From Mobula hypostoma (lineage: Eukaryota), in contig NC_086108.1 in the NCBI RefSeq assembly GCF_963921235.1, positions 42,782,001 to 42,842,000 of the forward strand: a DNA stretch of 60,000 nucleotides, given 5' to 3'. Positions 1,478 through 58,230 of the stretch are shown one piece after another (the stretch's first letter is position 1; each line of letters begins with the position of its first letter). Both the position numbers and the translations under genes were made by a program. A model generated the notes under the pieces. It searched no databases, had not been told where the DNA came from, and worked only from the letters and a program-made list of their open reading frames with translations.

Positions 1478-1747
1478 TGTTGATGCCTCCATCCAACATC
1501 AAAGTCACTGTTCTTGGCAAAACTGCAATCCGGTTAAGTTGGAAATCAATTGCTAAAGTATTCCAGTATGAAGTAACAGTGCATAAAAATTCTGAAGACT
1601 CTTCTGATGGAATAACTACAAATATATTTTCTAATTTTATAATACTAAATAATCTTGCACTATGTACTAATTACACCATCACCATAAAGTCACTGAATGA
1701 TTTCAGACTTCTTGGAGAAGGCACATCTATATATTATACAACTGAAT
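1478..1747 (+). CDS. FN3 exon 1 (window numbering), 270 bp; Cys-poor type (1 Cys)
   Basis: tttacag|TGTTG... ACTGAAT|gtaagt; LMPPSNIKVTVLGKTAIRLSWKS...NNLALCTNYTITIKS...YYTTE. Confidence 0.88.
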
Positions 1748-4700
1748 GTAAGTAAGATATAGAAACTGCATTTTAGTGTTTATTCTAATGAAACTAATAC
1801 TAACTAATTCTGACTCAATAGAGGAATTACTAAATTGATCTTTGAATTTGAATCTATATTGTTTGGTATTTATGTTAGTAGTTATCTTCCTTGGGGTACA
1901 TTCCCCCGAGATGAATCAGAGATACCAGAATCAATTCATTATTATCAAAGAAACCCAGTGTTCCTCCTGTTTTGCTCCTTCAGGAATTTTGATTCTATCC
2001 AGATAGTGGAGCAACTTTAGTGACTTCCATTCTATTTCCTAGTTTGCTGCTGGAACATTCCATGACAAGAACAGCCAGAATACAAGACGGCTCCCCTGAT
2101 CTCCTCTCTAGGTGTACGGTGAAGATGCCAACTCCCACTTCTCTCCTATAACACATTACAAGTGTGATACCTCTTTAGCCATTAGGCACAGAATCTATTC
2201 AATGAAACAGTGACTCCATGGTTAATGTTCTGGGAGCAGGAAAAAGCTAATGATTCAGTGATATACATATGTACCGTACTATGGCAGTTGTGAAAGTTAA
2301 AATTAATTAACTTTAACCAGTGGTAAGCAAAAACCTAATTGGTTCAGTAATGTCCTCTCAGAAAAAAAAATCTGATCTGGCCAAGACATGACTAAAAACC
2401 CACAAGAATGTGGTTAGTTCTTAACTCTCTTTTGAAACAGCTGAGCAAACTCCCAATTCATGGGCATTCAGGGATATGTGGTAAAAGTGCACCTACATCC
2501 AGTAATTAATTAAAAGAAAATTAGACGATACAATCAGAGTTTTCCCAACTCACTTTGGAATCAATCTGAGCTTGTGCTTTAACTTTTAGTCATAATTTAC
2601 CTTGTAATTTCGTATTTCCGAGAGGGACTGGCTGTTTGTTCATCAAGGTGAGCAGACTGTGAAGGAAGGGTTAGGCAACATTGCCTTGCAGGAGGCGACC
2701 TAGAATTGGGAGGAAGAAGCAATTTTCAATTGGCTGTTCTTCACCTGGGTCAGATAGACTGACTGCTCAACACGAGGGATGGAGGGAAGGAGGGGAGGGG
2801 TACTACTAGTAAGTCAAAACTGCCCACGCAGGTCACAAGGTGGAGTCAGAAGTACAGCCTCAAAAAACAACACTGATATCTTTCTGAAATAGAAACAGGA
2901 AGTTGGAAATGTTTAGCAGGTTAGGCAGCATCCCTGGAACAGAAACAGAGTTAATTTTTAAGGTTGAGGACCTTCATTTGTAACTTCTGGATAACTGATT
3001 TTTTTGGGGGGGGGTTGGTGACTGCTCCTGCAAATCCAGCCACAATACGAACAGGGGTCAAAGTTGCTCAGCATAAATGAAGGGAGTGTGGAAGATGCTG
3101 GGTTTGAAAAGGGAAGGTAGTCAAGCCTGCATGAAAGGGAAATGGGGAGTACAGCCAAAGCAACGCACATTAAAAAAATCCTGGTGAACGCAGCAGGTCA
3201 GGCAGCATCTCTAGGAAGAGGTACAGTCGACGTTTTGGGCCAAGACCCTTCGTCAGGACTAACTGAAGGAAGAGATAGTAAGAGACTTGAAAGTGGGAGG
3301 GGGAGGGGGAGATCCAAAATGATAGGAGAAGATGGGAGGAGGAAGGGATGGAGTTAAGAGCTGGAAAGTTGATTGGCAAAAGGGATATGAGAGGATCATT
3401 TACGTGTGTTGCTTGAAATTCCAGCATCTGCAGATTTCCTCTGCCAGGCAGCACCAGAGTTTCATCCATATAGCACTGTCGATTGGCACTCTGGTAACTT
3501 GAAATTTGGATTTTTAACCCAAAGATTATATGAATACCAAATGTTTTTGCTTTGTTTTCTGCTACTAACTTTTCAAGTTGGAGAGAAGTTGATAATGGGT
3601 GTATTTTGTCTCAACAGCGGTAAGTCCGGTGCAAGACGTGAAAGCAGTTTACAGCTGCCTTGCCGACTCAGCTGTGCTGTCGTGGAAAGTCAGCCCCGGT
3701 GCCACAGTCTATCAAGCTGTTGCCAGAAGCAGTGCTGGTGTAATTCTGTTCTGCACCTCCTCAGCCGTTACTTGCCAAATTACCGGACTGGGCTGCAGCG
3801 AAAGCTACTCTGTAACAGTTGTGGCTCAGACTGACGAATGTAACTCCAGTGAAAGTTCACCCATAATATTTGAAACACGTACGTTTAGGTTCATAGAGAG
3901 TGCTGGATTATTATATTGCGTGCTTGTGAGGGAGATTAATTTTGAAGTGATGTTTTTGAGACCTGGGTGTTTGCTGGGTAGGCCTACAGTTATTGTTTAT
4001 TGTTAATTGTCTGTGAGGAAGTGGTGGTGAACCATTCACCAGAATTTGCTAGAGGGGAGTTGTACATGTAGCCAAGAAGGAAAAGGAAGTACGTATTAGG
4101 TTTAGAAAACTGAAATTTGACAGGGCCTTAAGAAATAGAAAGAAAGCATGAAAGGACACACACAGGGAATTAGGAGCGCCAAGAGGTATCGTGAAGGAAT
4201 GTCAGAGGCATTCATTATGTACATTAAAGGCAGGAAGGTAGCTGGGGAGAGAGTAGAACCATTCCAGGATAAAGGAGGGAATTTATGCCTGAAGCCCGAG
4301 GAAGTGGATGAGGTACTGATCGAGTACTTGGCATCAATATTCAACAAGGGGAAGGGCATCAGGGAAAGTCAAATCAGCGTGGGGTATGCCAGTAACTGAG
4401 GGCGTGTTGGGACTAAGGAGGAGATGGTGTTGGGTCTGATGAAGAACATTGAGTCCCCAGGGCCTAATGGGATGTATGCCAGGTTATTGAGAGAGATTGC
4501 CGGATCCTTGCCAGAGATCTTTGTATCGTATCTAGCTACAGGTAGTAGGTGCTTGGATTGCTCTGCGAAGGGTACTTGTGGTAGCTGACATGATAGTGGC
4601 ATTTAAAAGGCATATGACATGCAGGGAATTGAGCAATATGGATCATGTACAGGCAGATGGGATTAGTTTCATTCAGCATCATGGTCAACACAGACACTGT

Positions 4701-7700
4701 AGACAAAGAGGCCTGTTGAATGCTCCAAGTCATCAAGGTAAATGAGGATAAATGAAGAAAGGTAGTTATAAAAGTAAATAGAGAACTTTATAAAATGGGC
4801 ATTTGATGTACTGAATATGATTAAGTTATTTATGAGTAAGTATTAGACAAGTCATGGGCTTTACAAACATTAAGTGTAAATCCTCACTTGAGCTGCTCAC
4901 CATTGTATATAATAGAAACAGTGGTAACTTGAGGCTGTAGAAAGAGTCAAAAGCCGGAGCAAACATTTAGCGTGAATTTAGTTGTACTTATTTCAATGCA
5001 GAAGATTTGACATAGTATTGATTTAAACAAATATTGTTGTGATATGTTAATCACCAATATTATATGACGGGTAACGAGAAGTTTAAAGCATGTGCTTATT
5101 ATATACTTTACAAACTAATAGTCTTCTTTCATTGCCTGTAGAGCCCTGCACTCCTCAGGATTTCCAAGTAGATCGTGATTGCCATAGTAACACTGTGTGG
5201 ACTTCCTGGAAAGCCAGGAGAGGAGCTTTCGTGTACAGGGTAACTGCCCTGGCATCTGATGGGATAACAGAAAAATGCCACACCAGAGGAACTTCCTGTG
5301 TCTTCACCTTTTTCAAATGTGGATTGGAGTATGAACTGAAAATTGAGGCAATATCAAGGGACCAGTGCAAAAGCAATGCAAGTGACCCCACTGCAATACG
5401 CACAGGTGTGTTATTCAGTGTAATCCTGAGCAACCGCAGTAAACCATAGGGTTTCTTCTTAAGCCCTGTTATTCCACTCTAGGTCAGGTTATCATATTCA
5501 GATATTAACCAGAATCTTTTTTTTTCTGTATGGGAAATCAATAGTCGGTCGTGTTGACCTTATTGCTTTGTAGTTGTTACTAGGCTGTGCATCTGCAGTC
5601 AGCAACTTGTACATCTGTCTCTACCAGTGCTTCTATTCAGATAGCTTTTAACAGATGTGATGCAGTGATTTACATACAATAGGTAGCAAAATGATGTTGC
5701 GCTGACCCATATAAACCTATTTCACAATCAATCCAACATTTCCCTTCTACATAGACCATAACCAATTTTCTTAAAATCCATGTCTCTTAAATATCCCTAT
5801 TGTGACAGACTCTGCCACCAGCCCTGGCAGTACATTTCAGGCACCTCTTGTTATCTATGTTAAAAAAACACCAAGTCTGGCAGCTCCCATAAGTTTTCCT
5901 CCACTCATATTGAGAGTTTGACAATTACCTTTGACTTTTCACCCGCTCTGTTTTAGATTCAATATTCTAATTAATGCTGAATAAATGCATAATTTTGGTA
6001 CATCTTAAACTTCCTGTGTGCCAACTCTATGTACCTGCTCATGAAATCTATGATAATATATGCATTTTAAAGTTCAGGCTCTTGTGAGTGATGTCACCAA
6101 TAGGACTGTGCTCCTAAATGACCTATATAAACCCTTACAAATGTGCTGAACAGGATTTCTCTTCTACTGCCGCACTTGCCTGGCTACTTTTTAAAAATTA
6201 TTTATTCATTTACGGGACGTGGACATCGCCAGCTAAGCTGGCATTTATTGCCCATCCCTCGTTGTCCTTGAGAAAGTGGCGATGAGATGCCTTCTTGAAC
6301 TGCTGCAGTCCCTGAGGTGTAGGTACATCCACAGTGCTGTTAGCGAGGGAATTCCATGATTTTGACGGAGCGACAATGAAGGAACAGCGATATGTTTTCA
6401 AGTCAGGATGGTGAGTGACACGGAGGGGGTTTTCCAAGTGATGGTGTTCCCAGGTATCTGCTGTTCTTGTCCTTCTAGCTGGTAGTGGTCATCGGTCTGG
6501 AAGGTGCTGCCTTAGGAACTTTGGTGTGTTGTTGCAGTGTATCTTATAGATAGTACACACTGCTGCAACTGTTCGTCAATGGTGGAGGGATTGGATGCTT
6601 GTGGAAGGGGTGCCAATCAAGTAGGCTGCCTTGTACTAGATGGTGTCAAGCATCCTGAGTGTTGATGGAGCTGCACTCATCCAGGCGAGTGGCGAGTATT
6701 CCATTACACTCCTCACCTGAGACTTGTAGATGGTGGACAGGCGTTGCGGGGTCAGGAGGTGAGTTACACGCGGCAGAATTCCTAGCCTTTGACCTGCTCT
6801 GGTAGCCACGGTGTTTATATGGCTAGACCAGTTCAGTTTCCTGTCAACGGTAACCCCCAGGATGCTGATAGTTGGGATTCAGGTAGTTAACTCAGGTAGA
6901 CCGTGAAAGCAAACTCAGTGTAACTAATTGTGCAGGAAAAGAGGGAAGTTGTTGAGAAGGAACATAGGAAAAAGTGTGAGACAATGAGGTTTTCATTCCA
7001 TTGGAATGGTCTCACCAGCTTCATTTTCTTTGCAGCCCCTTGTATACCAGAAGACGTGAAAGCCTCCAGTGACTGCTCTTCTCACATTTTAACCATTTCA
7101 TGGGAAATGGCACTGGGGGCCCAGACATACAAGGTGGAAGTAGTGGGAACGAATGGAAGCAAGTACAACTGTAGCTCTTCCACGACCAGCTGTGCCATCT
7201 CCAAGCTACCGTGTGGCATAGGGTTCATTGTATTTGTCATTGCTTACGATAGTGAATGTGACAGCGGCAGATCTTACTATGCCTTTGGAGAAACAGGTAG
7301 GATGGACCTCTATGTTTACATTTGCGTCGCTTTAATTGCGAGTTTATTTCAATGTGTGGCAGAGAAAAACTTTCTCATCCCTGCCCTAAATGGAGGGCTT
7401 TTTATTGTTAAATAGTGATGCCGAGTTTCAGGTTCTCTGACAAGAGGAAACTTCCTTTTCACATCCGTCCTGTCAAGAAGACTGTCAAGGATTAGGTGAC
7501 AATTAGCAATAGTAACAGCAGTAATGAATCTAGCTGTAAGTCTAACAATGGTTTCATAGTAATACTAGGAATTAAGGGAGATTTTATAAATGTGTGCTGA
7601 AGACATTTAATCTACTGAAAGAAATTGTTTGAAATGTGGCAAAATCTAAATTATAACTCAAAAGCGTTTCTGACAACACATCTTACAAATGATGAGTGCA

Positions 7701-10700
7701 AAGAATTTTTATGGTTATATTTAGAATTGAGAGTTTTATATGTTTATTTTAGCAGAGACGGTGGTAATCATTGACTAGACAGTGGTGAAATACAGCAGGG
7801 AAACTCGCACTGCATTGAAAAATTCAATAGGCCGCATTTTCCTAAATAATTATCCTTTTCCCCAGCACCCTGCACCCCAGCAAATGTTCAGACGCAGTTG
7901 GACTGCGACACAAATACAGTGAATGTCATATGGGATAAGCATGATGGGGCATTTAACTACATGGTCTCTGCCAACGGAAGTGATGGGACTCAAATGATGT
8001 GTGCCTCATTGCACACAAACTGCTGGCTTCCAGACCTGAAATGTGGCCAAGTGTACACAACAACAGTCATTGCTTCAAATTACATATGCAACAGTTCACA
8101 AAGTTCTCCTGTTAATTTTGTGACAGGTAAGCTAAAGATTTAGCAATGCATTAATCATAACTACAGAGGTTTTTAATGTTGTAAATTTGATTAGACTAAT
8201 AATGACAGTGAAATCTAAATGCAAAATGTGGCCTGATATATAAATTGCTTGTAGTAGTCGCAAAGAATAAATGCAAACCGTGCCAACACTGTGGCGAACT
8301 GTCAAGAGGTCATCAAGATTGTTGGAGAGTGGGATCTTGGGAACTGGCCATGATGCCTAGTTCTCATTCGTGGACCACTGCGACCTGGGATGGCTGTGCT
8401 GGTGAGGCCTTAAGGTTAATTGTACTCACAGGTCCACGAAACCTGAGTGCAGCTGGGGAGGTATAGCGATGGGCGCAAATGCTGGATCAAGCTCCATGTG
8501 GCCCATCTGCTCGATTTACCTGTTATAGTGATCGTAATGGAGAATGAATATTGTGTTTGTTATTACCGATAAATGGCCTTCTGACCTACTTTATCTGAAA
8601 ATGGCATCCATTTCAGCACCTTGGGACATATTACCCTGTTAATGGTGTTATGCAAAAGAAAGTTTGGGATTCAGAATTACTTATCACATATGCATTGAAA
8701 CATTCGGTGAAATGTGTGGTTTGTGTTACCTAAGAATGTGCCGGGGGCAGCCTGCAATTGTTGCCGCACATTCCAGCACCAATGGAGCTTACATACACCG
8801 CACTCGTTGCAACAGCACAGAACACAGCAAAGCAGAACATACCAAGCAACAAAGCAACAACAGCAAATCAAGCCTCATTGGTTTTCTATGTTTTTGCATG
8901 TGCTGGCTTTGTTGCCTTTCTTAGTGGCAGTTAAAATCGAGCTTTCATTTTCTCCTATCTTTATAGCTCCATGCACTCCACAGAATGTGGCTGCCCAGCT
9001 GGATTGTGCCACGAGCACCGCTTCACTGTCATGGGATTCCAGCCCGGGGGCCGTTTCCTACACAGCATCAGCCACAGAGCCCAGTGAGCTGTCATACAGT
9101 TGTAACACGCAGCAAACTTTCTGTGAGATCAGGAATTTGCCATGCAGCCAAAACTACACCATGACTGTGAGAGCACTCAATGAACAGTGTGAGAGTAACC
9201 AGACCACAGTTGTTGGAGTGATTTCAAACTTAGGTAAGTGTTATCGTTCAGTCTGTAGCTCCGAGATTTTATGCTATTATTTGCCAACAATCAGGCAATA
9301 GTAAAATGTATTACAACGATACTTTTTTTTTCAATATATATCAGTATTATCACACTAAAAATAAATGAAAAGCTTCAAATATATTGATAGTCTGAGTCTT
9401 TAATGGCTCCATAGTGATTAAACAGCATAGAAAAAAAAACATAGAAACCATAGAAAAACTACAGCACAGAAACAGGCCTTTTGGTCCTTCTTGGCTGTGC
9501 CGAACCATTTTCTGCCTAGTCCCACTGACCTGCACACGGACCATATCCCTCCATACACCTCCCATCCATGTATCTGTCCAATTTATTCTTAAATGTTAAA
9601 AAAGAACCCGCATTTACCACCCTGTCTGGCAGCTCATTCCACACTCCCACCACTCTCTGTGTGAAGAAGCCCCCCCTAATGTTCCCTTTAAACTTTTCCC
9701 CCTTCACCCTTAACCCATGTCCTCTGGTTTTTTTCTCCCCTTGCCTCAGTGGAAAAAGCCTGCTTGCATTCACTCTATCTATACCCATCATAATTTTATA
9801 TACAGTATCTCTATCAAATCTCCCCTCATTCTTCTATGCTCCAGGGAATAAATTCCTTGCACTTATCTAAATTAAACTCCATTTGCCATTCCTTAGCCCA
9901 CTTGCATAACTGATCAGCATCCCTCTGTAATTCCTGATAAATATATTCACTGCTTACAACCCGAACAATTTTAGTGCCATCTGAAAACATGCCTACTACT
10001 GCTTGTATTTTTTCACCCAAATTATTGATATAGATGACAAATAGTAATAATAGTATGTTTCGTAATTACTCTGTGGATTTATTGGCACCATTTTTCTCTT
10101 GCATGTTGAAATATATCAGATTGCCAGCCATGGAATGTGACTGGAAACTTGAACTGTGGCAATAATGCCCTTGTGGTATCCTGGTCTGCCCGCGCCATAG
10201 CAGGATCACATGTTGTTACTGCAGAAGGAAGTGATGGGCACATTGCTTCACTCAACACCACAGCAACAAGCTGCCAGTTCACGGACCTGCGATGTGGTCA
10301 GTCGTATAATATAACCATACGCGCTACAAGCACTGAGTGCATAAACTCCAAGGTATCACGTTTGCAGACTGAAACAGGTACTGATAATATTGCATAACTG
10401 TTGTCTTAGTTAATGCAAAGCATATTTTGTCAAACGTACCATAGTTGTTCTGGTTAAGATCAGAGTGTATAGCAATTATAGGAACTTTCTCTTTTACTCA
10501 CTTCCCAGCTGGTTTCTCTGCGATAGGTTTTTGATTGCATATTAATCACACTTGTTTGAATCTGTTAATCTGTGAGTATAATGTGGTCAGTGACTGTGGA
10601 AGGGCCAGCTAGTAGGAAACTGCATTTAAACATGAGGTATAAACCATACCTTGCTGTTCACGAGAGGAAAGATGCTTCTTCTAAGGAAATCTAATAGCCT

Positions 10701-11853
10701 GGGGCTGACAATTGGAAGTGGAGGGTGGGTGGAAGAGAGAAACTGGCAAGATGGAGGAGAAAGTCTGGTTTAAAAAGGATTACCTGACTGGGGACAGAGA
10801 TTTGAGTGGGTTCTTGGGTTAGATTCAATGGTGGTAAGGCCAGTAGGATAATAGAAGGGTCGGGTTAGGGTACCAGGTCTGGCAAACTTGGTAAATAAGC
10901 GATCAGGCCATGGAGTTGGTCAGATGCATGGGCGAAGGAAGTCTATAGATTGGGTCAAGGGCACAACGGGACTGCAAGTGGAGTTCAACGCAGGAGTATC
11001 TACAGGTGGGCTCTGGCCGGAGAGGTCAGCTGGAGGGTGGAATGTCAGCTGTTGGGAACAGTTGGTGAAATCTCCAATCGGCATATTGATAGTCAGCAGT
11101 TAGGGGTTGAATAAGAACAGAAATCTGGCAGGGTTGGATTGCCCTATCTTTTTATTGTTTTCTAATTCCAAGCCTTTTCCATGGAAAATGGATGATAGCT
11201 ATTGTTTTTATTACAGTATGGCAAAGTACTGCTCCTGCAAAACAACAAACTTCATGACATCTACCAGTGATATTAAACCCCATTCTGATTCTGACAGCAC
11301 ACAGTGGGTTTGGTTTTGATTCTGACTCTGACTGCTCCTTGTGTGCAGTATATATGCTTCCCTGTGCCCGTATGGATGGTTTATCCTGGGTGCTCCAGCC
11401 TTCACCCACACCTCAAAGCTGACAAGTTACTTGTCAGTTTAAATGGCTCCATTTTTAGGTGGGTGGCAGGAGAATTTGGGGTGGTGCTGACACATATGGG
11501 AGTGAGAGTGGTTGATAGGGAATAAGTGGTTGAATGGAACTGATGGAATAGTCTGGGGGCTGGGATCGACCCAGTGGCCAAATGGCCGCCTTCCCTGTTA
11601 TAAGGAAATATGAGAAATATATTCTTATTCACTTTTCATGCTCGCCTGATTTTGGCAGTACCAATGGAGTTCCCTGTAACAATCAGACATTATAGTCCAG
11701 TGACTGTATTAGTAGCTGTGGTGCAATTCCAGTGAACAGCAGCCATGTATTTTCATTGCTTGTTTATGAATAAAAAATTAGCAGTGAATGTGGAGAGCTG
11801 AACTGGAGCTTAAGAAGTTTCAGTGTTCACACTTCAATTGACATTTCTATTTT

Positions 11854-11907
<54 letters not shown>

Positions 11908-15796: not shown

Positions 15797-15842
<46 letters not shown>

Positions 15843-39138: not shown

Positions 39139-39170
<32 letters not shown>

Positions 39171-51100: not shown

Positions 51101-54100
51101 GGAGGGGAGAGAGAAACACAAGGTGAGAAGTGAAACTTGAAGGGGGAGGAGTGAATAGAGAGCTGGGAAGTTGATAGGTGAAAGAGACAGAAGGCCATGG
51201 AAGAAAGGAAAGGAGGGAGAAGCACCAGAGGGAGTCAATTAGGCATGAACATTGATTTCTCAAACTTCCGATAATGTCCCACAGCCCTTCCCCCCTCTCA
51301 TTCACCATCTCCCATCCCCTTTTCCCTCTCTCACCTATCTCCCTGTCTGCCCATCACCTGCATCTTTCACCAATCAGCTTCCCACCTCTCCACTTCATCC
51401 TCCCCCTTCAGGTTTCACCAATCACCTTGTGTTTCTCTCTCCCTTCCCATCAACTTTTAAATCCACTCCTCGGCTTTTTTTCTCCGGTCCTGCCGAAGGG
51501 TCTCGGCCCAAAACGTTGACTGTACTTTTTTCCATAGATGTTGCCTGGCCTGCTGAGTTCCTCCAGCATTTTGTGTGTGTTACTCAGATTTCCAGCATCT
51601 GCAGGTTTTCTCTTGTTTGTAAACAATTGATACCTTTTGATATCCTTTCCAAAGATGTTGCTTGACCTGCTGTGTTCCTCCAGCATTTCATGTGTGTTGA
51701 TAGGCACAGCATTATTAGCTTTATCAATGACTTTATCCCATCATAATGCGGGATGGTGACTGATCGACTGCACAATGCTCAATTGCATTTGCATCACTCA
51801 CAAATGAAGCAACCCACACCCAGCTGCAACAATAACTAGCTAGACAAGATATAGACACCAACTGTAAAATGCAAATATAATTTTTCAAAATTCCCATTTC
51901 ATTTTTCATTCTGTTCACATTTGAAAAGTAGGACATTGCTTGAATTATTTTGCACAATGTTGTTAAAGGGCTAGTGAAATAGGGAGCTTTTGTAAAAGAG
52001 CTGACTTCCATCACCCTACAAATCCTTCTGCCAGTGTGACATTATGTAAAGATGTATAACAGCTGGACAATCAGTTCCACAAGATGGGAATCCAAATCAT
52101 CGTCTGTTGTGAGAACCGAAGGAACTGAATAATAAAGACTTAAAGTGAAATGAAAAATATGAAAAGGCTTGAGAAAGATATTAAGGTCCAATTTTCAAAC
52201 AATTTGCAATTATATTGTGCCATTTCAAAATAAACCAACACATTCTCGTGGAGTGCAATGTGGGATTCTTGACTGTCAATTTGTATACAGTAAGATGCCA
52301 CCACAGTAGTGTGGCAATAATCAACTTATCTGCTTTATCACTGAGAGAAATAAATTAAATAATTACAAAATGAACACCAAATTTCTTTCTTAAAAACGCA
52401 GACACGAGGAAATCTGCAGATGCTGGAATTTCAAGCAACACACATAAAAAGTTGCTGGTGAACGCATCAGGCTAGGCAGCATCTCTAGGAAGAGGTACAG
52501 TCGATGTTTCGGGTGTGACGAAGGGTCTCGGCCTGAAACGTCGACTGTACCTCTTCCTAGAGATGCTGCCTGGCCTGCTGCGTTCACCAGCAACTTTGAT
52601 GTGTGTTACAAATTTCTTTCATGCGTATTAGTTGGAAGTACATGAAAGACAACTTCCTGTCCACTAATGATTGTCCAAATCACAGATCCAATAGGACAAT
52701 CAATTGATTTAGAATATTGACAAGCAGTATGAAGGCCAAAGTATTTTGACATGTATATTTCCTGACTGAGCCAATGATTTTCTGAATGGCCCAAACATAA
52801 ATTACAGTCTTCAATGACTTGAGTGACTCTTAATAGGAATCTAGTAGCAGCAATGCTATTCAGGCCTCTCCTTGGCTGATGACTTTGTGAGTTCACTAAT
52901 CACCTCTGTTTCTAACTACACCGATGTTGTCTATTTCCAGCATTTTATATCGGTTTCCTAGGAACTGCAGTTTTTGCTTTTCTGAATCATTCAATGATTG
53001 ACAAGATTCAACTAATAAGCAGAATAGACTCAAAAGGTTCATTCCTCTCCCAATGTTGTATTTTTACCATTGAAACACCACACTGATGTCACTAATTCAT
53101 AATGTTATTTCTCTCTCCTCCTGTCCTGAAGCCCCTTGTCCCCCTCAGAACGTACATGCTGATGGTGCTGGTGTCACTGCCTTTGTAATGTGGGAGCCGA
53201 GTAACCTCACAGTGTGGTACACCACTACGGCAGAGGGGAGCGATGGACACACAGCCACCTGTACCACATCCAAAACAAACTGCCTCATCCCAGATCTTCA
53301 CTGCAGCCAAACATACAACATCTCAGTCCTCGTACTTGGTGAAACCTGCAGCAGCCTCCGGAGCTCTAGTTTTGAAATTCAAACAGGTGATATAAAAATA
53401 AAATATCCCCCTTTATATAAAACTTCTCATCTGCTCAGGAATATCTTCAAGATCGAGAGATAAGTTTGATGTGCACTCCTTTTACTCACAATAACTCTTG
53501 AGAGTGGTATAAACCGGCAAGTTTAATACAGTGCTCATGGTTAAAGGTGAATTGTAGTCAGGACAGCTTCTCCAAGAAATGCTCAAAGAACTACTGACCA
53601 GAATAGACAAGATCTGATTGGCCTCACTGGAAGTGCAGCTCGTGAACAAGGATCTCACATTCTTATTAAATTATCATTTGCAATTATGTGAAAGCAGGCA
53701 GCTAGTAACCTGAAGAGAGTGGAAAACAGCTGAATATTCATATTGCCAAGGTGGCTGACCTTTGGTTATTCACTTAAATTTTTGATGTGAAACCAAGTCA
53801 AAGTATTAATTGGGATTTGATAATTTGCAAATAACTGTGACTGCCACTACTGGAGTGAACTGGGTAAAGTGAGCACCAAGCTCATTCTGGCCTCTTGTCC
53901 AATTAAATTGGATCCCAATAGGATTGTCAGAGCAGGACTACATCTCTGACCCGAGGGCCTGAAAACCTAACCTCAGTCTTTCTGCCATTCTGGCTATTTC
54001 CCAACCCTTTCTAGAAAGGAAAGGGCCTCAGAAATCTATATTCCTCCAGGCCTGATAGCTTCCCATGGACTTTCTCTTTGTGGCTGGATTCATGGGGATA

Positions 54101-57100
54101 AAGCAGAAAACTGGATCAAATGGCTCAAGAGGACTACCAGGTGGCTGGTTGGTAAAATCTAGGGGCCTCCTCTTTGTGTCTGTTACAGCGGGCATAGGTC
54201 CGAATGATAATATCTTCTTTGAGGCCCTCCATTGGTTGGGGTCAACCATGGATGTTGCATCTCAGGTGTCACAAGCCAGTACACAAGCCTACCACGTAGG
54301 AGGCTCCCCCTCTCGACACAACTGATGAATCCAAAGGAATAACAGAGACCAGTGGCATCACAGGAGTTGCCAGTCAGCACTGAGTTCATAAGACTGCCTT
54401 CGGGACTCCAGCTCCAGAATTTCCCTCAGGGATTACTCCCAAAGACTTCCCAATGAGCGGATATAGCTGCAGAGCAGCAGAGGTTTGAGATCAGAGATTT
54501 TCTTCTCCTAAATTAGCTGCCAACCACAGCTGACAAGCCCCATTTACCCAAATGACTAGTTTTAAGGTGCCAGTAGCCCACCTTTACCCCTTCTCCTGTC
54601 AGTTGAAATGGTGTCACCAGGCTTAGTAGCCCTGCGTGAAGGCCAGGAGCTGGTCTTGGTTTACAGAGGCTATTTGTAATGCATGCCTTTCGGAGCATTT
54701 AATAGGCAGTGGGAGCTTATCCCCTACTATTACAAACATAAGGAAGCAATAATATCCTCAGGACTTGTGAAAAGCATGCAAATAATGAAACACTTAGGTT
54801 CTGTTTTACTTGGGTATAACAGTGAAATTAAAAGGATTTACAAAAACACTCTATCTTCTAGCAGTATCGTGGAACTCATCCAATTATCTTGAAGTGCTCT
54901 GTAAAGATTGGAGCCAAAACTAATCTGGTATACAGAATGTCTGTCCTGCCAACATAAGTAAACATTTGCCCACCTCTTCTCCAAAGCACCATCTTCGCCA
55001 GGGTTCCAAAGTGGCCCTATTTGTAGTGGAAGGATTGCAGTTCTATGGTTCACTGATTTCATAAACCAGCTGGAACATAGGAACTTCACTACAGACACTG
55101 AAATCTTACCATGACCTAAAGTTAAAGATACTATATGCATATGGTATCTTTTATAGTATCTGTGAGCTGGTCTACCTGAACAGATGCTGGTGACCTTTTA
55201 CCGCTGCACTATAGAGAGCATCTTAACATACTGCATCTCTGTGTGGTATCTCAGTTGTACAGCAGCTGATAGGAAAGCACTTCAGCGGGTCATCTCTAGT
55301 GCACAGAAGATCATTGGGATACAGCTCCCAGCCCTGGAGGACACCTACAGCTCTCGCTGCCTAAGGAAAGCTACAAGCATCTGTAAGGACAATACACACC
55401 CATGCAATCATCTGATTGAACTTCTTCCATCTGGCAGACGTTATAAGATTTTCTATGCCCGCACTTCCAGACTGAAAAATAGCTTTATCCCCCAGAGCTA
55501 TAATTGCTCTGAACCAATCAATCAAGCATCATCCATAAATTTGTTATATTGCTACTTCAATACTGGTTTTATGGCTGTCATGCATCTGAGCTGTGCTTTT
55601 GTACTGCTAGACGTTGCTTGTACTGGCTGGTTACTTGATTTTATTTATTGGTTATTTATTTTATTTGTTGTTTTATAGCATTGAGTATGAGGGTTGCAAA
55701 CTCATTTTCGTTGTATTGGTGCATGACAACTGTACTATGCAATGACGATAAAGCTATTTCATTTCATCCAGCATCATTGATTCAAATATCCCGCATTCAG
55801 GGAAAACGGAGATTGAGCACTTAAACTGGCAGTTGGTGGCCCTAATGCTGTAGAGCTGGAGTGGATCAAAATCAGAATCAAATTTATGATCACAAATATA
55901 TATGATGTGAAATGTGTTGTTTTGCAAAAGCAGTGCACTGCAAAGACAGACAAAATACTGTGAATTACAAAGCTAAATAGTGCAACAATAAAGGATTACA
56001 GAGTGGTGTTGATGGGTTCCTGGGCCGTTCAGAGATCCGATGGTGATGGCAAGAAGCTGGCTCTGAGTCTGAGTGTGGTTGTTCAGGCTGCACCGCCTCC
56101 CTGATGGTGGTAAGGAGAAGAGGGCACGTCCCAAGTGAAGAGGGTCCCTGGTGACGAGTGCTACCTTCCTGAGGCACCACCTCAGTAGTGGGGAGTCTTG
56201 TGCCTGGGATAGAGCGAGCCGAGCCTACAGCTCTCTGCAGCCTGTTGTGATCCTGTGCATTGTAATGTCCATACTGTGAAGCAACTAGTCGGAATGCTGT
56301 CCACTATACATCTACGGGCATTTACAAAAGTCTTTGGCAACAGATTGAATCTCTTCAAATGTCGAACTCAGCAGACCACGGCCTCCTCTACTGTAAAGAT
56401 GAAGCCACACTCAGGTTGGAGGAACAACACCTTATATTCTAGCTGGGTAGCCTCCAATCTGATGGCATGAACATCGACTTCTCAAACTTCCGCTAATGCC
56501 CCACCTCCCCCTCGTACCCCATCCGTTATTTATTTATATACACACATTCTTTTTCTCTCTTTGCTTTTTCTCCCTCTGTCCATCTCACTATACCCCTTGC
56601 CCATCCTCTGGGTAATCCCCCCTCCCCCTTTTCTTTCTCCCTGGGCCTCCTGTCCCGTGATCCTCTCATATCCCTTTTGCCAATCACCTGTCCAGCTCTT
56701 GGCTCCATCCCTCCCCCTCCTGTTCTCTCCTATCATTTCGGATCTCCCCCTCCCCCTCCCACTTTCAAATCTCTTACTAGCTCTTCCTTCAGTTAGTCCT
56801 GACGAAGGGTCTCGGCCTGAAACGTCGACTGTACTTCCTCCTCGAGATGCTGCCTGGCCTGCTGCGTTCACCAGCAACTTTGATGTGTGTTGCTTGAAAT
56901 TCCAGCATCTGCAGACCACGGTCATGCTTTCTTTGTGATTGCATCGATGGTGTTGGGCCCAGGTTGCATCCTCTGAGATGTCAGCGTTCAGGGACGTGAA
57001 GCTACTCACCCTCTTCACAGCTGATCCTTCAAAGAGGACCAGTATCTGTTCTCCCAAGCTCCCCATCCTGAGGAACACAATCAATTGTTTGGTCTTTCTG

Positions 57101-58230
57101 ACGTTGAACGTGAGGCTGTAGTTATGACACCATACAACCAGTCGATCTATCTAATTCCTATTTGCCTCCTTGTTAACACCTGAGGAACAGTGGTGATGTT
57201 AGCAAATTTATAAATGGCATTTGAGTTGTGTTTAGTTGTGCTCAGTTATGAATGTAGAAAGAGTAGAGCAGTGGGCTAAGCATTCATTGCTGAGGTGTTG
57301 CTGTGTTGATTGTCATTGAGGAGATAATACTACTGATCAGCAATGCCTGTGGTTTCCTGATAAGGAACTCGAGGAGCCAACTGCAAAGGGAGATGCAGAG
57401 GTAGAGGTCCAGATTTTGAAGCTTGGTGTTTAGGACTAAGGGAATGGTAGTGTTGAAATCTATCAACATGTAATCGATAAACAGCAACCTGACATGTTTT
57501 GAAGTTTTGTATGTCATCTTAAGTAGCAGGATTGATGGTAGAAAGAAATGATTTTACATATTTTTCTCCAGTCATTTTTACTGTTTGTATTTCCCTTTCT
57601 ACAGCATCATGTGCCCCAAATGAAATTGTTGCGGAAGTGGATTGTAACTCCAACAAAGTGGTTGTGTCCTGGGGAAGGACTAATGCAGCAATCTCATTCG
57701 ATGTAACTGCTGAGGGAAGTGATGGTCATACACACTCACACAACACAACAGAGACACGCCATGAAATGCTGGATTTACACTGTGGACAGTCCTATAACAT
57801 AACCGTAACGACTCTGAGTTACAGCCGGCATGGCATTTCGAGTACTTCCATCCAAATACAAACTGGTAAAGTAATTAATCATTTAGTTACATCTACTGAG
57901 GAAATAATTTTACCTTGTTTGTTTACACAATTGCATAATAATAAATATTTCTCTCTATTTTCTAAATAGCACCCTGCATTCCTGAGAATCTAACGGCTGA
58001 GCTTAATTGTGATTTGAACACAATATCCTTCTGGTGGGATGAGACTGCTGGAGCAAAGTTATACACTGTGACTGTTCGAGACAGTCAAAGAGTTACGGCT
58101 TTATTCAACACAAGTGATACAAGGGCTCAAATCCGGGACCTGCAGTGTGGTGAATATTATACAATCTCTGTCCTAGCAACAGATGACATCTGCAGGAGGC
58201 CCCAGGGAGCAGTGGTGAATGTACATTCAG
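1478..58230 (+). CDS. FNDC7-like: Internal part of a large multi-exon gene for a Cys-rich tandem FN3 protein (FNDC7-like). 24 exons in window, 6264 nt / 2088 aa spliced; both ends outside the window
   Basis: 24 phase 1-1 exons of 255-270 bp, each with pyrimidine tract+AG and a GT donor. Shared FN3 consensus (A/V)PCxPxNVxAxLDC..W...GA..Y..TA.G.DG...C......C...L.CG..Y...V.A....C.S...T resembles FNDC7 repeats (recognised from memory, no search run). Confidence 0.88.
3160..3442 (-). mobile_element. Penelope-derived terminal segment with an inverted end and a hammerhead motif mutated GAAA>AAAA
   Basis: Reverse complement of 3221-3260 is AGTCCTGACGAAGGGTCTTGGCCCAAAACGTCGACTGTAC; matches 56690-56915. 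Confidence 0.75.
3618..3878 (+). CDS. FN3 exon 2, 261 bp
   Basis: tcaacag|CGGTA... GAAACAC|gtacgt; VSPVQDVKAVYSCLADSAVLSW...IFET. Confidence 0.9.
4120..4720 (+). mobile_element. Degenerate CR1-group LINE fragments
   Basis: KAF..YIK.K...ERV.P..DKGGNLC..PEEV.EVL.EY.AS.F-like peptide, SPGP.G motif, CR1-like 3' end. Confidence 0.7.
5142..5405 (+). CDS. FN3 exon 3, 264 bp
   Basis: cctgtag|AGCCC... CACAG|gtgtgt; PCTPQDFQVDRDCHSN...AIRT. Confidence 0.92.
6200..6885 (-). mobile_element. CR1/L2-group LINE 3' fragment
   Basis: Minus-strand peptide KSWNSLANSTVDVPTPQGLQQFKKASHRHFLK (LINE ORF2 C-terminus), AATAAAT-type tail. Confidence 0.7.
7036..7296 (+). CDS. FN3 exon 4, 261 bp
   Basis: tttgcag|CCCCT... 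AACAG|gtagga; APCIPEDVKASSDC...FGET. Confidence 0.93.
7866..8126 (+). CDS. FN3 exon 5, 261 bp
   Basis: ccccag|CACCC... GACAG|gtaagc; APCTPANVQTQLDC...NFVT. Confidence 0.93.
8967..9233 (+). CDS. FN3 exon 6, 267 bp
   Basis: tttatag|CTCCA... CTTAG|gtaagt; APCTPQNVAAQLDC...ISNL. Confidence 0.92.
9428..9850 (-). mobile_element. Young CR1-group LINE 3' fragment
   Basis: TRGHGLRVKGEKFKGNIRGGFFTQRVVGVWNELP motif; (TTTCTATGG)n tail. Confidence 0.88.
9853..10052 (-). mobile_element. Older CR1 RT fragment, paralogous to 12800-13100
   Basis: FSDGTKI...LQRDADQLCKWAKEWQMEFNLDKC (degenerate FADDTK region). Confidence 0.8.
10120..10377 (+). CDS. FN3 exon 7, 258 bp
   Basis: atatcag|ATTGC... AACAG|gtactg; DCQPWNVTGNLNC...QTET. 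Confidence 0.88.
11340..11600 (+). mobile_element. Degenerate V-domain-type SINE fragment
   Basis: ...tttatcctgggtgctccagccttcacccacacctcaaag resembles the V-SINE core. Confidence 0.4.
11855..11907 (+). repeat. (TC)n microsatellite forming the pyrimidine tract of exon 8
   Basis: Seen directly. Confidence 0.95.
11918..12178 (+). CDS. FN3 exon 8, 261 bp
   Basis: (TC)n..cgtgaag|CACCC... GACAG|gtacgg; APCVPQNVNAHLDC...ALET. Confidence 0.9.
12800..13430 (-). mobile_element. CR1 RT fragment interrupted by a short young CR1 3' tail (13108-13225)
   Basis: GVHQGSGLGPLLLIIYINDL...FADGTKI motif. Confidence 0.8.
13702..13962 (+). CDS. FN3 exon 9, 261 bp
   Basis: ttgacag|CACCT... CACAG|gtgaac; APCPPVIISGYPDC...QLHT. 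Confidence 0.92.
14121..14697 (+). mobile_element. Internally deleted Tc1-like element with transposase N-terminal HTH remnant
   Basis: TIR-like GTGGCCACTTTATTAGG at left, inverted copy at 14671-14697; GKKCD.S..D.GMIVGAR..GLSISET.DLLG.S.TTVSRV. Confidence 0.8.
15797..15837 (+). repeat. (TG)n microsatellite
   Basis: Seen directly. Confidence 0.95.
15998..16258 (+). CDS. FN3 exon 10, 261 bp
   Basis: ctcatag|TACCA... AACAG|gtactc; VPCVPQIVNAVVDC...EIQT. Confidence 0.93.
16298..16600. mobile_element. Penelope-derived fold-back element containing a copy of the exon-10 acceptor region
   Basis: Inverted arms ACACAAAATGCTGG...CCAGCATTTTGTGT; insert 16419-16524 matches 15971-16078. Confidence 0.8.
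16419..16544 (+). pseudogene. Partial duplicate of exon 10 (acceptor plus about 80 nt), in-frame TGA at 16542-16544
   Basis: Near-identical to 15971-16078 (3 substitutions in the coding part). Confidence 0.9.
18009..18269 (+). CDS. FN3 exon 11, 261 bp
   Basis: atttcag|CACCC... GACAG|gtaact; APCSLQNVTAYIDC...QMKT. Confidence 0.93.
19221..19481 (+). CDS. FN3 exon 12, 261 bp
   Basis: tcccaag|CCCCT... AACAG|gtgggg; APCAPELVDVAVQC...QFQT. Confidence 0.91.
20105..20690 (-). mobile_element. Non-autonomous bipartite RTE-derived element
   Basis: Minus strand has GGCAGTCCATCTAAGAGAGGGAAAACTCTGATTTCAAACC (RTE 5'-UTR-type motif); 3' part shared with SINEs at 1015 and 32628; homologue at 54345-54730. 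Confidence 0.65.
21165..21425 (+). CDS. FN3 exon 13, 261 bp
   Basis: tcaatag|CACCA... CACAG|gtaaca; APCVPQDVEASVAC...IVHT. Confidence 0.93.
22085..23270 (-). mobile_element. CR1-group 3' fragment with a nested insertion (22521-23155)
   Basis: LQLYKTLVRLHLEYFIQFWSPHY on one side of the insert and TRRHTFKVRGG on the other. Confidence 0.8.
22521..23155 (-). mobile_element. Non-coding, non-autonomous LINE-derived element (Rex/Babar-like ends); second copy at 40670-41240
   Basis: Minus strand starts GAAGATGGCAGC and ends AATAAAAG...(AATCT)n; about 570 bp shared with 40670-41240. Confidence 0.7.
23272..25092 (+). mobile_element. Tc1-like DNA transposon with long TIRs; transposase pseudogene about 23900-24878
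   Basis: Inverted termini ~23272-23445 / ~24880-25092; MKTKEHSKQ..., WSDETK, WGCF.AAG.G.LVKVE..MNAAKYREILEENL, ends GASTKY*; frameshifted. Confidence 0.9.
23502..23768 (+). mobile_element. Short L1-type 3' end inserted in the Tc1 element, 15-bp TSD AGAAGTCACATCATT
   Basis: TSD copies at 23487-23501 and 23769-23783; tail AATAAAAAGATTTGAAAAGAAAG like the L1 tail near 32046. Confidence 0.85.
25100..28710 (-). mobile_element. Long degenerate CR1 LINE (ORF1 SGNH-esterase remnant plus ORF2 EN/RT remnants), interrupted
   Basis: 27594-27968: VVSGLLPVP..NEWLRNWCRRQGFRFL..W..FWGRDDLYKRDVLHLN; 25643-25987: IKDNPKAFFTYIRSKR. Confidence 0.8.
25988..26572 (+). mobile_element. Rex1/Babar-type LINE 3' fragment nested in the CR1
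   Basis: TLANFCRCTVESILTDCITIWYG..TAQDRKKLQKVV (Rex/Babar ORF C-terminal motif). Confidence 0.85.
29008..29325 (-). mobile_element. CR1-group 3' fragment, head-to-head with the L1
   Basis: (CATAGAAA)n tail; TRGHSFKVLG-type sequence on minus strand. Confidence 0.8.
29326..32072 (+). mobile_element. 5'-truncated L1-clade LINE: uninterrupted 795-aa ORF2 part (29330-31717), T-rich 3' UTR, AATAAA 32046-32051, (GAAA)n tail
   Basis: KAPGPDGF, YRPISLLN.D.K, QTGFIKGR, SLDAEKAFDRVEW, GTRQGCPLSPLLF, YADD, YLGI, and C-terminal CDRC..HMFWSC knuckle. Confidence 0.95.
32128..32388 (+). CDS. FN3 exon 14, 261 bp
   Basis: catgtag|CACCC... GTCAG|gtaata; APCLPTNVTASIDC...EIQS. Confidence 0.93.
32628..32910 (+). 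mobile_element. tRNA-derived SINE with RTE-related tail
   Basis: A box TGGCCAAGTGG, B box GAGTTCGAGCC; body shared with 1015-1312 and 20105-20290. Confidence 0.85.
33060..33850 (-). mobile_element. Non-coding, non-autonomous LINE-derived element
   Basis: Minus strand starts AAGATGGCAGC and ends in (TGAACT)n; same layout as 22521-23155. Confidence 0.5.
34420..34700 (+). mobile_element. CR1-group 3' fragment
   Basis: KVVNIWNKLPKAVVEA...FKGHLDMYM. Confidence 0.75.
35481..35741 (+). CDS. FN3 exon 15, 261 bp
   Basis: ttttcag|CACCG... TTCAG|gtggtt; APCAPEDVKAHLNC...KFYS. Confidence 0.92.
36900..37462 (+). mobile_element. CR1-group 3' fragment
   Basis: [35 protein letters not shown]; (TTCTATGG) tail. 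Confidence 0.9.
38824..39084 (+). CDS. FN3 exon 16, 261 bp
   Basis: ttttcag|TCCCC... GACAG|gtaact; VPCEPQNVEVQLDC...NIQT. Confidence 0.93.
39138..39166 (+). repeat. (ATTT)n microsatellite
   Basis: Seen directly. Confidence 0.9.
39646..40015 (+). mobile_element. CR1-group 3' fragment
   Basis: MRGDLTKVYKIMRG..TRGHRLRVKG..FFTQRV. Confidence 0.85.
40670..41240 (-). mobile_element. 5'-truncated second copy of the 22521-23155 element
   Basis: Direct sequence similarity. Confidence 0.8.
41517..42160 (+). mobile_element. CR1-group 3' fragment with an open ORF2 C-terminal 182 codons
   Basis: ISRGIEYRSRDVMLRLYKVLVRPHLEYCGQFWSPYL; (TCTTATGG)n tail. Confidence 0.9.
42758..43018 (+). CDS. FN3 exon 17, 261 bp
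   Basis: atttcag|CCCCT... GACAG|gtaaaa; APCSPQNVNAYLDC...TTET. Confidence 0.93.
43251..43511 (+). CDS. FN3 exon 18, 261 bp
   Basis: tgtacag|CACCT... AACAG|gtaatg; APCIPQNVVAHINC...AVKT. Confidence 0.93.
43633..43887 (+). CDS. FN3 exon 19, 255 bp
   Basis: cttgcag|TACCG... AACAG|gtaact; VPCVPQNVNAYMDC...TMRT. Confidence 0.93.
44249..45429. mobile_element. Solo LTR (1181 bp), TGTCA...TGACA, 5-bp TSD GTCCT
   Basis: TSD at 44244-44248 and 45430-45434; internal 66-bp tandem repeat and (CCAAGT)n. Confidence 0.85.
44741..44950 (+). repeat. 66-bp tandem repeat, 3 copies plus a partial, inside the LTR
   Basis: Units start at 44741, 44807, 44873 and 44939 (TGTCTCTT...). Confidence 0.9.
45745..46082 (+). 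mobile_element. Penelope-derived 3' segment with degenerate hammerhead motif
   Basis: Pyrimidine-rich tract, then AGTCCTGTTGCAGGGTCTCGGCCCGAAACATTGACTG. Confidence 0.75.
46181..46441 (+). CDS. FN3 exon 20, 261 bp
   Basis: tttctag|TTTCG... AACTG|gtaggt; VSCIPQNLDVHVDC...EFET. Confidence 0.93.
46505..46725 (+). mobile_element. Short LINE 3' end (Rex/Babar-like) with (TATC)n tail
   Basis: AATAAAG followed by TATCTATCTATCTA. Confidence 0.55.
47704..48255. mobile_element. Tc1-type MITE composite with a TIR hairpin at each end, TA-flanked
   Basis: TA-CAGTACTG(C/T)GCAAAAGTCTTAGGC-type TIR and its inverse at 47704-47770 and 48181-48255. Confidence 0.75.
48990..49400 (+). mobile_element. Tx1/L1-type LINE 3' remnant
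   Basis: AHHRLQEYVLRDTLKFGADTTRAQW resembles a Tx1-like ORF2 C-terminus. Confidence 0.6.
49997..50254 (+). CDS. FN3 exon 21, 258 bp
   Basis: tttgcag|CCCCT... AACAG|gtgaga; APCVVKYISTNLDC...ETKT. Confidence 0.93.
50622..50922 (+). mobile_element. CpG-rich tRNA-derived SINE with A-tail
   Basis: A box TGGTGGCGCAACG, B box GGGTTCGAAAC, terminal A-run. Confidence 0.75.
50980..51700. mobile_element. Inverted pair of Penelope 3' segments plus a partial repeat
   Basis: Minus copy ~50985-51235; plus copy 51240-51620 begins with GMNIDFSNFR*; both have degenerate hammerhead motifs. Confidence 0.8.
52390..52608. mobile_element. Penelope-derived palindromic mini-element with 12-bp TSD CAAATTTCTTTC
   Basis: TSD at 52378-52389 and 52609-52620; arms ~52436-52512 / ~52531-52607. 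Confidence 0.88.
53132..53386 (+). CDS. FN3 exon 22, 255 bp (lacks Cys2)
   Basis: cctgaag|CCCCT... AACAG|gtgata; APCPPQNVHADGAG...EIQT. Confidence 0.9.
54345..54730 (-). mobile_element. RTE-derived non-autonomous fragment, homologue of 20290-20680
   Basis: Direct sequence similarity. Confidence 0.7.
55150..55768 (+). mobile_element. Rex1/Babar-type LINE 3' fragment
   Basis: LVTFYRCTIESILTYCISVWY..CTAADRKALQRVI...LLPSGRRY...RLKNSFIP. Confidence 0.9.
56380..56915 (+). mobile_element. Penelope-like element 3' end: GIY-YIG ORF C-terminal remnant (56380-56496), pyrimidine-rich UTR, hammerhead motif
   Basis: GLLYCKDEATLRLEEQHLIF*LGSLQSDGMNIDFSNFR*; flanked by GCAGACCACGG at 56371-56381 and 56911-56921. 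Confidence 0.82.
56795..56830 (+). ncRNA. Minimal type I hammerhead ribozyme motif (Penelope-associated), intact core, predicted cleavage after C56826
   Basis: AGTC-CTGACGA-AGGGTCTCGGCCT-GAAA-CGTC-GACT: stem I AGTC/GACT, core CUGACGA...GAAA, GUC triplet, palindromic ACGT in place of stem III. Confidence 0.72.
57605..57865 (+). CDS. FN3 exon 23, 261 bp (His-rich; Cys3, 4 and 6 lost)
   Basis: tctacag|CATCA... AACTG|gtaaag; ASCAPNEIVAEVDC...DGHTHSHNTTETRHE...QIQT. Confidence 0.92.
57970..58230 (+). CDS. FN3 exon 24, 261 bp (Cys3 and 4 lost)
   Basis: taaatag|CACCC... TTCAG|gtatct; APCIPENLTAELNC...NVHS. Confidence 0.92.

Follow-up and report, generated by a model that had tools for sequence, protein, structure and literature searches.

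An array of FN3 exons in the devil ray genome

The window, that is, the entire stretch of 60,000 nucleotides of Mobula hypostoma DNA that was analyzed, contains 24 exons on the plus strand between positions 1478 and 58230 (e1 to e24, Table 1), which were found by a six-frame scan combined with a profile search. Each exon is 255-270 nt long, a multiple of 3, and of phase 1-1, and when joined, the 24 exons form a single frame of 6264 nt, or 2088 codons, that is not interrupted by any stop, in full agreement with the preliminary description of this locus. The donor is GT in 24 of 24 exons, and the acceptors are CAG (14), TAG (7) and AAG (3). In a hold-out control, a profile built from 22 exons recovered the 2 that had been omitted (E 4e-20 and 3e-28), and the best score that the same profile search found on the minus strand of the window was only E 1.1. 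The fn3 profile of Pfam (PF00041) matches 23 of the 24 exons at E<=0.1.

The encoded domains had been described as widely different from each other but with maintained Trp, Tyr, Gly-Ala and Cys positions and with many N-x-S/T sequons, and the numbers bear this out. Pairwise identity ranges from 11 to 54% (median 35%); column counts over the 24 domains show that the Trp is conserved in all of them, that two Tyr positions are retained in 21 and 22 domains and the Gly-Ala positions in 18 and 20, and that six Cys columns are occupied in 19-23. The joined protein contains 131 Cys (6.3%) and 43 sequons. Unlike the Cys-rich remainder, the first exon encodes a Cys-poor domain of another type.

Table 1. 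Features of the analyzed stretch of Mobula hypostoma DNA
Feature	Position	Strand	Remarks
e1	1478-1747	+	third FN3 domain of the giant, Cys-poor; 91% to Hemitrygon residue 198 onward
e2	3618-3878	+	unique Cys-rich FN3
e3	5142-5405	+	unique Cys-rich FN3
e4	7036-7296	+	unique Cys-rich FN3
e5	7866-8126	+	unique Cys-rich FN3
e6	8967-9233	+	unique Cys-rich FN3
e7	10120-10377	+	unique Cys-rich FN3
e8	11918-12178	+	unique Cys-rich FN3
e9	13702-13962	+	unique Cys-rich FN3
e10	15998-16258	+	unique Cys-rich FN3
e11	18009-18269	+	unique Cys-rich FN3
e12	19221-19481	+	unique Cys-rich FN3
e13	21165-21425	+	unique Cys-rich FN3
e14	32128-32388	+	unique Cys-rich FN3
e15	35481-35741	+	unique Cys-rich FN3
e16	38824-39084	+	super-repeat unit 1
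e17	42758-43018	+	super-repeat unit 1
e18	43251-43511	+	super-repeat unit 1
e19	43633-43887	+	super-repeat unit 1
e20	46181-46441	+	super-repeat unit 1
e21	49997-50254	+	super-repeat unit 1
e22	53132-53386	+	super-repeat unit 1
e23	57605-57865	+	super-repeat unit 1
e24	57970-58230	+	super-repeat unit 1
e16-e24	38824-58230	+	first of five units of 8/9-domain super-repeat
e18-e19-e20	43251-46441	+	intron-free in one contig of run X5; e19-e20 in run X17
e22 (no Cys13), then e23 (no Cys74)	53132-57865	+	fits the predicted pair; excluded by both co-loss filters
Truncated copy of exon-10 acceptor and 5' part	16420-16528	+	109 nt, 96% identical
LINE-like reverse-transcriptase ORF	29327-31714	+	796 codons; Pfam RVT_1, E 1e-38
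Tandem repeats of period 66, 32 and 6-38	44741-45213		intron e19/e20

One gene that extends beyond the window

The closest relatives of the window protein are 'FNDC7-like' models from sharks and rays. The segment encoded by e13-e21 is 100% identical over 748 aa to the M. hypostoma RefSeq protein XP_062919509.1, which terminates in the intron after e21 and is one of at least 4 separate consecutive models, all fragments, among which RefSeq divides the gene in this species. In Hemitrygon akajei, by contrast, the gene is represented whole (fndc7rs1, XP_072918552.1; 5774 aa, with 65 domains detected by profile), and the window protein aligns with residues 198-2284 of this orthologue at 88.3% identity over 2087 columns without a single gap. 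The domains encoded by e1-e23 follow in the same order in Hemitrygon at 80-98% identity, with the same range for the collinear e2-e15 stretch; the final block of the alignment pairs e24 with an e16-type domain because the Hemitrygon model lacks e24 in the first unit of the super-repeat discussed below. In the domain tree, 13 of the 14 domains e2-e15 each pair with one shark or ray orthologue, and e8 is isolated. A further whole-gene model comes from Amblyraja (5055 aa).

The orthologue coordinates also agree with the earlier suggestion that the gene continues past both edges of the window: e1 starts at residue 198 of the Hemitrygon protein, and approximately 3,500 residues of the latter lie beyond the window-matched stretch. 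Upstream of that stretch, this protein has a hydrophobic, signal-like N-terminus and two Cys-poor domains; residues 1-200 have no match in the window by tblastn, and neither a signal-peptide exon nor an N-terminal domain was found within the window. At the other end, the Hemitrygon protein stops after the last FN3 domain, with no C-terminal membrane segment. The same architecture, with a signal-like N-terminus, three Cys-poor domains and a long array of 6-Cys domains, is seen in the orthologues that make up the giant family, and in the 108 giants compared, a 19-residue hydropathy window of >=1.9 occurs in 6 proteins and in none within the last 80 residues; these calls of signal-like and membrane segments were made by hydropathy alone, on orthologues, both ends of the gene being outside the window.

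Intron-free exon joins come from contigs of two putative RNA runs, the RNA status of which is a guess, that were aligned to positions 38600-58400 at 82% likeness. The joins of e18, e19 and e20 (Table 1) fall on the predicted sites, as those in spliced RNA do; the X5 contig differs from the three window exons in 5, 1 and 2 letters, respectively, and the two runs stem from different studies, X17 carrying another organism code. Both runs also carry diverged second copies of e16 and e17 (36 and 40 differences). An e24-to-e16 joint is absent among the joints listed for the contigs of these runs, a listing dominated by interspersed repeats.

The earlier proposal of a single gene is thus supported by both the collinear whole Hemitrygon model and the intron-free joins, and we are highly confident that the 24 exons encode domains 3-26 of one giant FNDC7-paralogue gene of the devil ray. 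A tandem set of separate FNDC7-like genes, the picture conveyed by the split RefSeq models (at least 4 in M. hypostoma, with several also in each of Narcine, Rhinoraja, Heptranchias and Heterodontus), is very unlikely given that the split models start at Met residues inside domains and often finish in intron read-through, that whole models exist in Hemitrygon and Amblyraja, and that the window holds no exon for a signal peptide or N-terminal domain.

The gene is real and already annotated but unstudied; our literature search on the structure, repeats or function of the giant genes found no paper. It exemplifies giant repeat genes that annotation hides through splitting and misnaming: automatic annotation often labels the giant models mucin, RPTP-beta or serine-rich adhesin. 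We reject the names mucin and fibronectin; receptor tyrosine phosphatase beta/J is rejected in view of the absence of a phosphatase Pfam domain from P0001 and from the C-terminal piece P0027, and because nothing follows the last FN3 domain of the Hemitrygon protein, in which no membrane anchor is seen. Two kinds of C-terminus, with or without one extra Cys-poor FN3 domain, occur among the giant relatives, and more than one giant gene is present in several fishes. A basic, furin-site-like stretch follows the last domain in 6 of the 27 tails scanned and, by eye, in two sharks (P0088, P0090, P0100, P0239, P0271, P0298, P0025 and P0086); with 6 of 27 tails, we do not claim a conserved furin site.

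A paralogue of FNDC7 in fishes and amphibians

How, then, is the giant related to FNDC7? In the Atlas search, canonical FNDC7 is the nearest named family, and in both, three Cys-poor FN3 domains precede those that contain Cys. The canonical protein, which is present in amniotes, amphibians and lungfish, consists of only about 730-830 aa and 8-9 domains, compared to approximately 50-65 in the giants and 24 in the window alone; its domains mostly contain 3-7 Cys and lack the regular 6-Cys pattern of the giants, and the identity between the two is about 27%. In a maximum likelihood tree of 27 N-terminal stretches, rooted at the midpoint with no outgroup and with no canonical fish gene in the set, 17 giants are separated from 10 canonical FNDC7 by a branch with 100/100 support. 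Both sides of this branch include a gene from lungfish, salamander and frogs, and in 8 amphibian or lungfish species, the contigs that bear the giant and the canonical gene are equal in length, an indication of linkage. There is little doubt, as far as the tree and the domain counts can tell, that the gene is a paralogue (of the giant type denoted fndc7rs1 or fndc7b) rather than an orthologue of FNDC7; orthology is rejected by its position on the opposite side of the branch and by the 24 window domains against 8-9. Hence the designation 'expanded FNDC7-like gene' in the preliminary description holds with regard to the FN3 domains being those of the FNDC7 family but not in the sense of an expanded copy of the mammalian gene, from which the tree separates it.

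A search with the N-terminal region of the Hemitrygon protein retrieved 101 proteins, namely, 96 from named vertebrates, 1 bacterial and 4 without a species. The 96 named giants come from ray-finned fishes (85), amphibians (9), a lungfish (1) and a skate (1), with no amniote among them in this word-index search (1015 candidates scored, 3175-10105 aa), whereas the list of canonical FNDC7 relatives is filled by birds and reptiles. Among the named relatives retrieved, the giant is thus apparently restricted to fishes and amphibians; since the scoring relied on shared words and covered 1015 candidates, the absence from amniotes is a pattern rather than proof of loss.

A predicted ladder of disulfides between domains

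Across 5051 domains, Cys occupies positions 2, 13, 45, 52, 59 and 74 in 86-95% of the cases and any other position in <=3%. Over 4494 core junctions in 108 giants, the within-domain pair Cys45-Cys52 shows strong co-loss (phi 0.88), and so does, even more prominently, the pair formed by Cys13 of domain n and Cys74 of domain n+1 (phi 0.93; 0.92 when the set is thinned at 60% identity to 1283 junctions), which is also the top inter-domain pair by mutual information (z 18). For the competing pairs inside one domain, Cys2-Cys74 and Cys13-Cys59, phi is near 0. With a slightly different filter from that of the 4494-junction set, both Cys13(n) and Cys74(n+1) are lost at 197 of the 224 junctions that lose either, the remaining 27 losing one alone, compared to a mean of 22 and a maximum of 35 when the downstream domain is shuffled within proteins; the 197 junctions represent 30-45 sequence classes at 42-50% identity. 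For the other potential pair, Cys59(n)-Cys2(n+1), all 71 junctions that lack Cys59(n) also lack Cys2(n+1). The case for this pair is weaker because only 4 of the 71 junctions are core ones, the rest involving terminal domains, and because 90 junctions keep Cys59 without a detected Cys2 in the next domain. In the window, a Cys is present close to position 59 in e1, yet e2 has no Cys2.

The single-domain structural model (pLDDT 95) contains seven strands, and its best match in the PDB is the FN3 domain of FNDC5 (4lsd; TM 0.80). For the four-domain model, which has a pTM of only 0.57, the best structural matches are fibronectin fragments (Z 18.5, rmsd 10.8, 330 residues aligned); the search of solved structures returned distant FN3 proteins only and no FNDC7. 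In the FN3 fold, the loops that contain positions 13 and 59 are at the C-terminal pole of the domain, and those with positions 2 and 74 are at the N-terminal pole, strand positions here being taken from the single-domain model and the poles being assigned from general knowledge. Because 13/59 and 2/74 lie at opposite poles, both pairs would bridge the junction between consecutive domains. Quite probably, then, the giant is held together by inter-domain disulfide staples, as predicted from these patterns of Cys loss: Cys45-Cys52 would be closed within the domain, and Cys13(n)-Cys74(n+1) along with Cys59(n)-Cys2(n+1) across the junction.

Should the same cysteines instead cross-link neighboring chains that are staggered by one domain, the product would be a disulfide-linked fiber or gel. 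A fixed staggered register would account for the co-loss of Cys13(n) and Cys74(n+1) equally well, and disulfide polymerization is frequent in gel-forming secreted proteins. We nevertheless consider this arrangement improbable: the FN3 layout brings 13/59 and 2/74 together at the covalent junction without any need for a partner chain, and the control comparison of domains n and n+2 yielded no comparable signal in the first co-loss table, which includes the Cys-free terminal domains and has position 2 trimmed.

With staples within the chain, a double staple at each junction would make the chain stiff, and with 65 domains of about 3.5 nm, the length of an FN3 domain, the rod could reach approximately 0.2 micrometers. 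The hydrophobic N-terminus and the absence of a hydrophobic segment at the C-terminus suggest that the product is secreted, and likely it is a chain of some 65 FN3 domains with heavy N-glycosylation. The long extracellular chain envisaged in the preliminary description is in this respect supported by the signal-like N-terminus and the whole orthologue model. The FN3 chains of fibronectin, tenascin and receptor phosphatases share the tandem FN3 fold with the giant; their repeats contain hardly any Cys and are able to unfold when force is applied, whereas the junctions of the giant are predicted to be covalently locked. If disulfides indeed span every FN3 junction, this would be a mechanical design unlike that of the extensible fibronectin or tenascin chains. 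Our literature search found no published FN3 tandem with disulfides between its domains; this argues only weakly for novelty, most subscription papers being outside the coverage of the search.

The super-repeat and the growth of the array

Neither the predicted inter-domain disulfides nor the super-repeat that starts with e16 were part of the preliminary description; together with the patchy concerted evolution of the five units and what appears to be a restriction to fishes and amphibians, they are what is new here. The order e16 to e24 followed again by e16 recurs in Hypanus, Mobula, Pristis, Rhinoraja, Heterodontus and Heptranchias. Five units each, of 8 or 9 domains with e24 optional, are present in Hemitrygon, Amblyraja and Mobula birostris, and downstream of these come four more 6-Cys domains and then two terminal domains. 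A tree of 230 domains groups every one of e16-e24 with its own copies from sharks and rays (support 0.99-1.0); therefore, the unit is older than the split between sharks and rays.

The copies of one species often resemble each other more than they do those of other species. Within Hypanus, Rhinoraja, Heptranchias and Hemitrygon, copies of e18 match each other at 97-100%, compared to 74-95% between the copies of these species and the e18 of the window; within Narcine, the copies are 80-88% alike. In the window unit itself, e16, e17 and e21 are closer to unit 1 of Hemitrygon (92-93%) than to later copies of M. hypostoma (73-84%), and e19 and e24 are 96-100% identical to later internal copies. 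The super-repeat is, on these comparisons, patchily homogenized within species, that is, it appears to undergo concerted evolution, and the gene is a clean case of such patchy evolution of a multi-exon unit. Higher-order repeats of several diverged modules are also found in titin and nebulin, the giant being an extracellular FN3 chain, and homogenized exon arrays with near-identical copies within species are familiar from the kringle IV-2 array of apolipoprotein(a).

The domain e24 is absent from the first two units in the Hemitrygon and Amblyraja models and present in unit 1 of the window. The window e24 is identical at the protein level to a later copy of M. hypostoma, which suggests recent conversion or gain. 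We considered and rejected the assignment of the window e24 to XP_062919510.1, in which e23 differs from that of the window; this model is likely a later unit that bears an identical e24.

A comparison of domain counts across the giants gives a median of 49 detected domains (28-64, n=108, partial models included). Near-identical internal repeats are present in 20 of the 108 giants, with lineage-specific periods of 1 to 9; the other 88 reach a similar length with diverged domains. Independent internal repeats are seen in cod, hake, anchovy, topmouth gudgeon, mormyrid, loach, sterlet and lungfish.

Among cartilaginous fishes, the skate models jump from e7 to e16. The models of Amblyraja (P0333) and Leucoraja (P0338) are without e8-e15, and that of Narcine (P0143) is without e8-e13 and e15; the catshark has additional domains ahead of the repeat. 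These differences are either gains and losses of blocks of unique domains or gaps in annotation. The gene has probably grown and shrunk repeatedly by unequal crossing-over of blocks of symmetric exons, and because every block would bring a compatible set of staples, the in-frame gain or loss of blocks could be tolerated.

Splicing or duplication?

The preliminary description further held that any exon could be skipped or duplicated in frame, so that isoforms of variable length might exist. The part of this claim that stands is the duplication and loss of blocks between species; splicing diversity is possible but fares poorly, exon skipping being supported by frog gene models only. We compared RefSeq isoform sets domain by domain in Amblyraja (11 isoforms examined), Gadus (9), Astyanax (10) and Hyla (7). 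In the first three, the differences are almost wholly inside near-identical repeats and therefore possibly are artefacts of mis-mapped reads; the exceptions are a different start in one Amblyraja model and an end-domain change in Gadus or Astyanax. In Hyla, 4 of the 7 isoforms each drop one unique domain, the nearest neighbor of which within the protein is 41-57% alike, and these gene models indicate that occasional skipping is likely.

Could the array then be mainly a device for isoform diversity, with symmetric exons skipped combinatorially to produce rods of many lengths? The phase 1-1 symmetry of all exons, the four Hyla isoforms and the shared staple pattern, under which most skips would be tolerable, are all compatible with such a device. 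We consider it unlikely, however: FN3 exons ordinarily show phase 1-1 symmetry, the contig joints listed include consecutive joins alone and no exon-skipping joint, and the isoform differences outside the frog are mostly in near-identical repeats. Furthermore, the paired Cys losses are specific to particular junctions, which implies that neighboring domains are usually fixed. A mutually exclusive array of the Dscam type is rejected since consecutive exons are joined in the contigs and in the whole-gene models. Comparison of the sequences thus lends much better support to a change in length through duplication or loss of exon blocks between species than through splicing.

A possible role in the lateral line

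What could be the function of a giant rod of this kind? Published expression data point to hair-cell organs for the FNDC7 family as a whole, the giant and canonical genes not being separated in these data. In zebrafish, fndc7rs4, which is not established as giant-type, and fndc7a mark the support and mantle cells of neuromasts, fndc7b and fndc7rs2 appear in the detected-gene list only and not as cluster markers, and fndc7rs1 is not listed in the supplement files that were searched (PMC6363392); fndc7a serves as a neuromast marker in PMC11789645 and in the StaVia preprint as well. According to the supplement of PMC5429088, a paddlefish locus labelled FNDC7 is 33-fold enriched in the lateral line, and the sturgeon data contain five FNDC7-labelled contigs with logFC of 4.1-5.8 in ampullary organs and neuromasts versus epidermis (PMC7720607), these labels being best-hit names that possibly denote canonical FNDC7. 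Mouse Fndc7 is 138-fold enriched in the supporting cells of the newborn cochlea (PMC5137903).

The composition of the cupula is described as largely unknown in PMC11765562. The same source provides an analogy, the zebrafish neuromast 'Muc5AC' CysD-chain protein, which is also a secreted chain of Cys-rich modules with a copy number that varies across fishes, is made by neuromast support cells and is needed for cupula length (PMC11765562). It belongs to another domain family, and its role has been tested, whereas that of the giant is proposed by analogy alone. By this analogy, a structural filament in the gel matrix of lateral-line support cells, in the cupula or the ampullary gel, is a plausible if tentative role for the giant, and it fits because the product is a likely secreted, glycosylated and stiff rod limited to groups that bear a lateral line.

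The main rival to this role as a gel scaffold is that the same stapled rod belongs generally to the mucus or skin matrix of water-living vertebrates, or to some other extracellular matrix, and is not particularly linked to the lateral line. Mucous skin suits the restriction to fishes and amphibians equally well, and the name of zebrafish fndc7rs1 is missing from the neuromast tables searched; on the other side of the ledger, FNDC7-labelled transcripts are above epidermis in sturgeon and lateral line-enriched in paddlefish, and the single 'rs' gene tested marks neuromasts. We regard such a general matrix role as possible but rather unlikely. For the explanation as a whole, a giant FNDC7 paralogue that encodes a stapled, secreted rod and possibly a filament of the lateral-line gel, we lean only slightly towards acceptance, the tissue and the role in the cupula or ampullary gel being its least certain parts.

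An even bolder version, which we offer as speculation and consider doubtful, is that an overlooked FN3 filament of fishes and amphibians, with 3,000-5,800 residues, doubly stapled, inextensible and of set length, would be the fibrous scaffold of the cupula and of the electroreceptor gel; that its approximately 50-65 domains would have arisen through independent super-repeat expansions in several lineages; and that it would have been lost along with the lateral line in amniotes, which would have kept the short sister gene FNDC7 in the inner ear. With a giant protein that is likely secreted and is confined to fishes and amphibians as a candidate, the question of what the cupula consists of becomes directly testable in zebrafish.

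Other elements in the window

An Rfam search of the window produced 0 matches. The truncated copy of exon 10 (Table 1) is flanked by the inverted arms of a repeated element, at 16302-16330 and 16536-16564, and these arms recur near positions 46000, 51500, 52500 and 56800. This copy is likely a pseudo-exon that offers a decoy acceptor, and it looks like a local capture of flanking DNA by the element. The reverse-transcriptase ORF lies in the sense direction within the 10.7-kb intron after e13, outside the FN3 protein.
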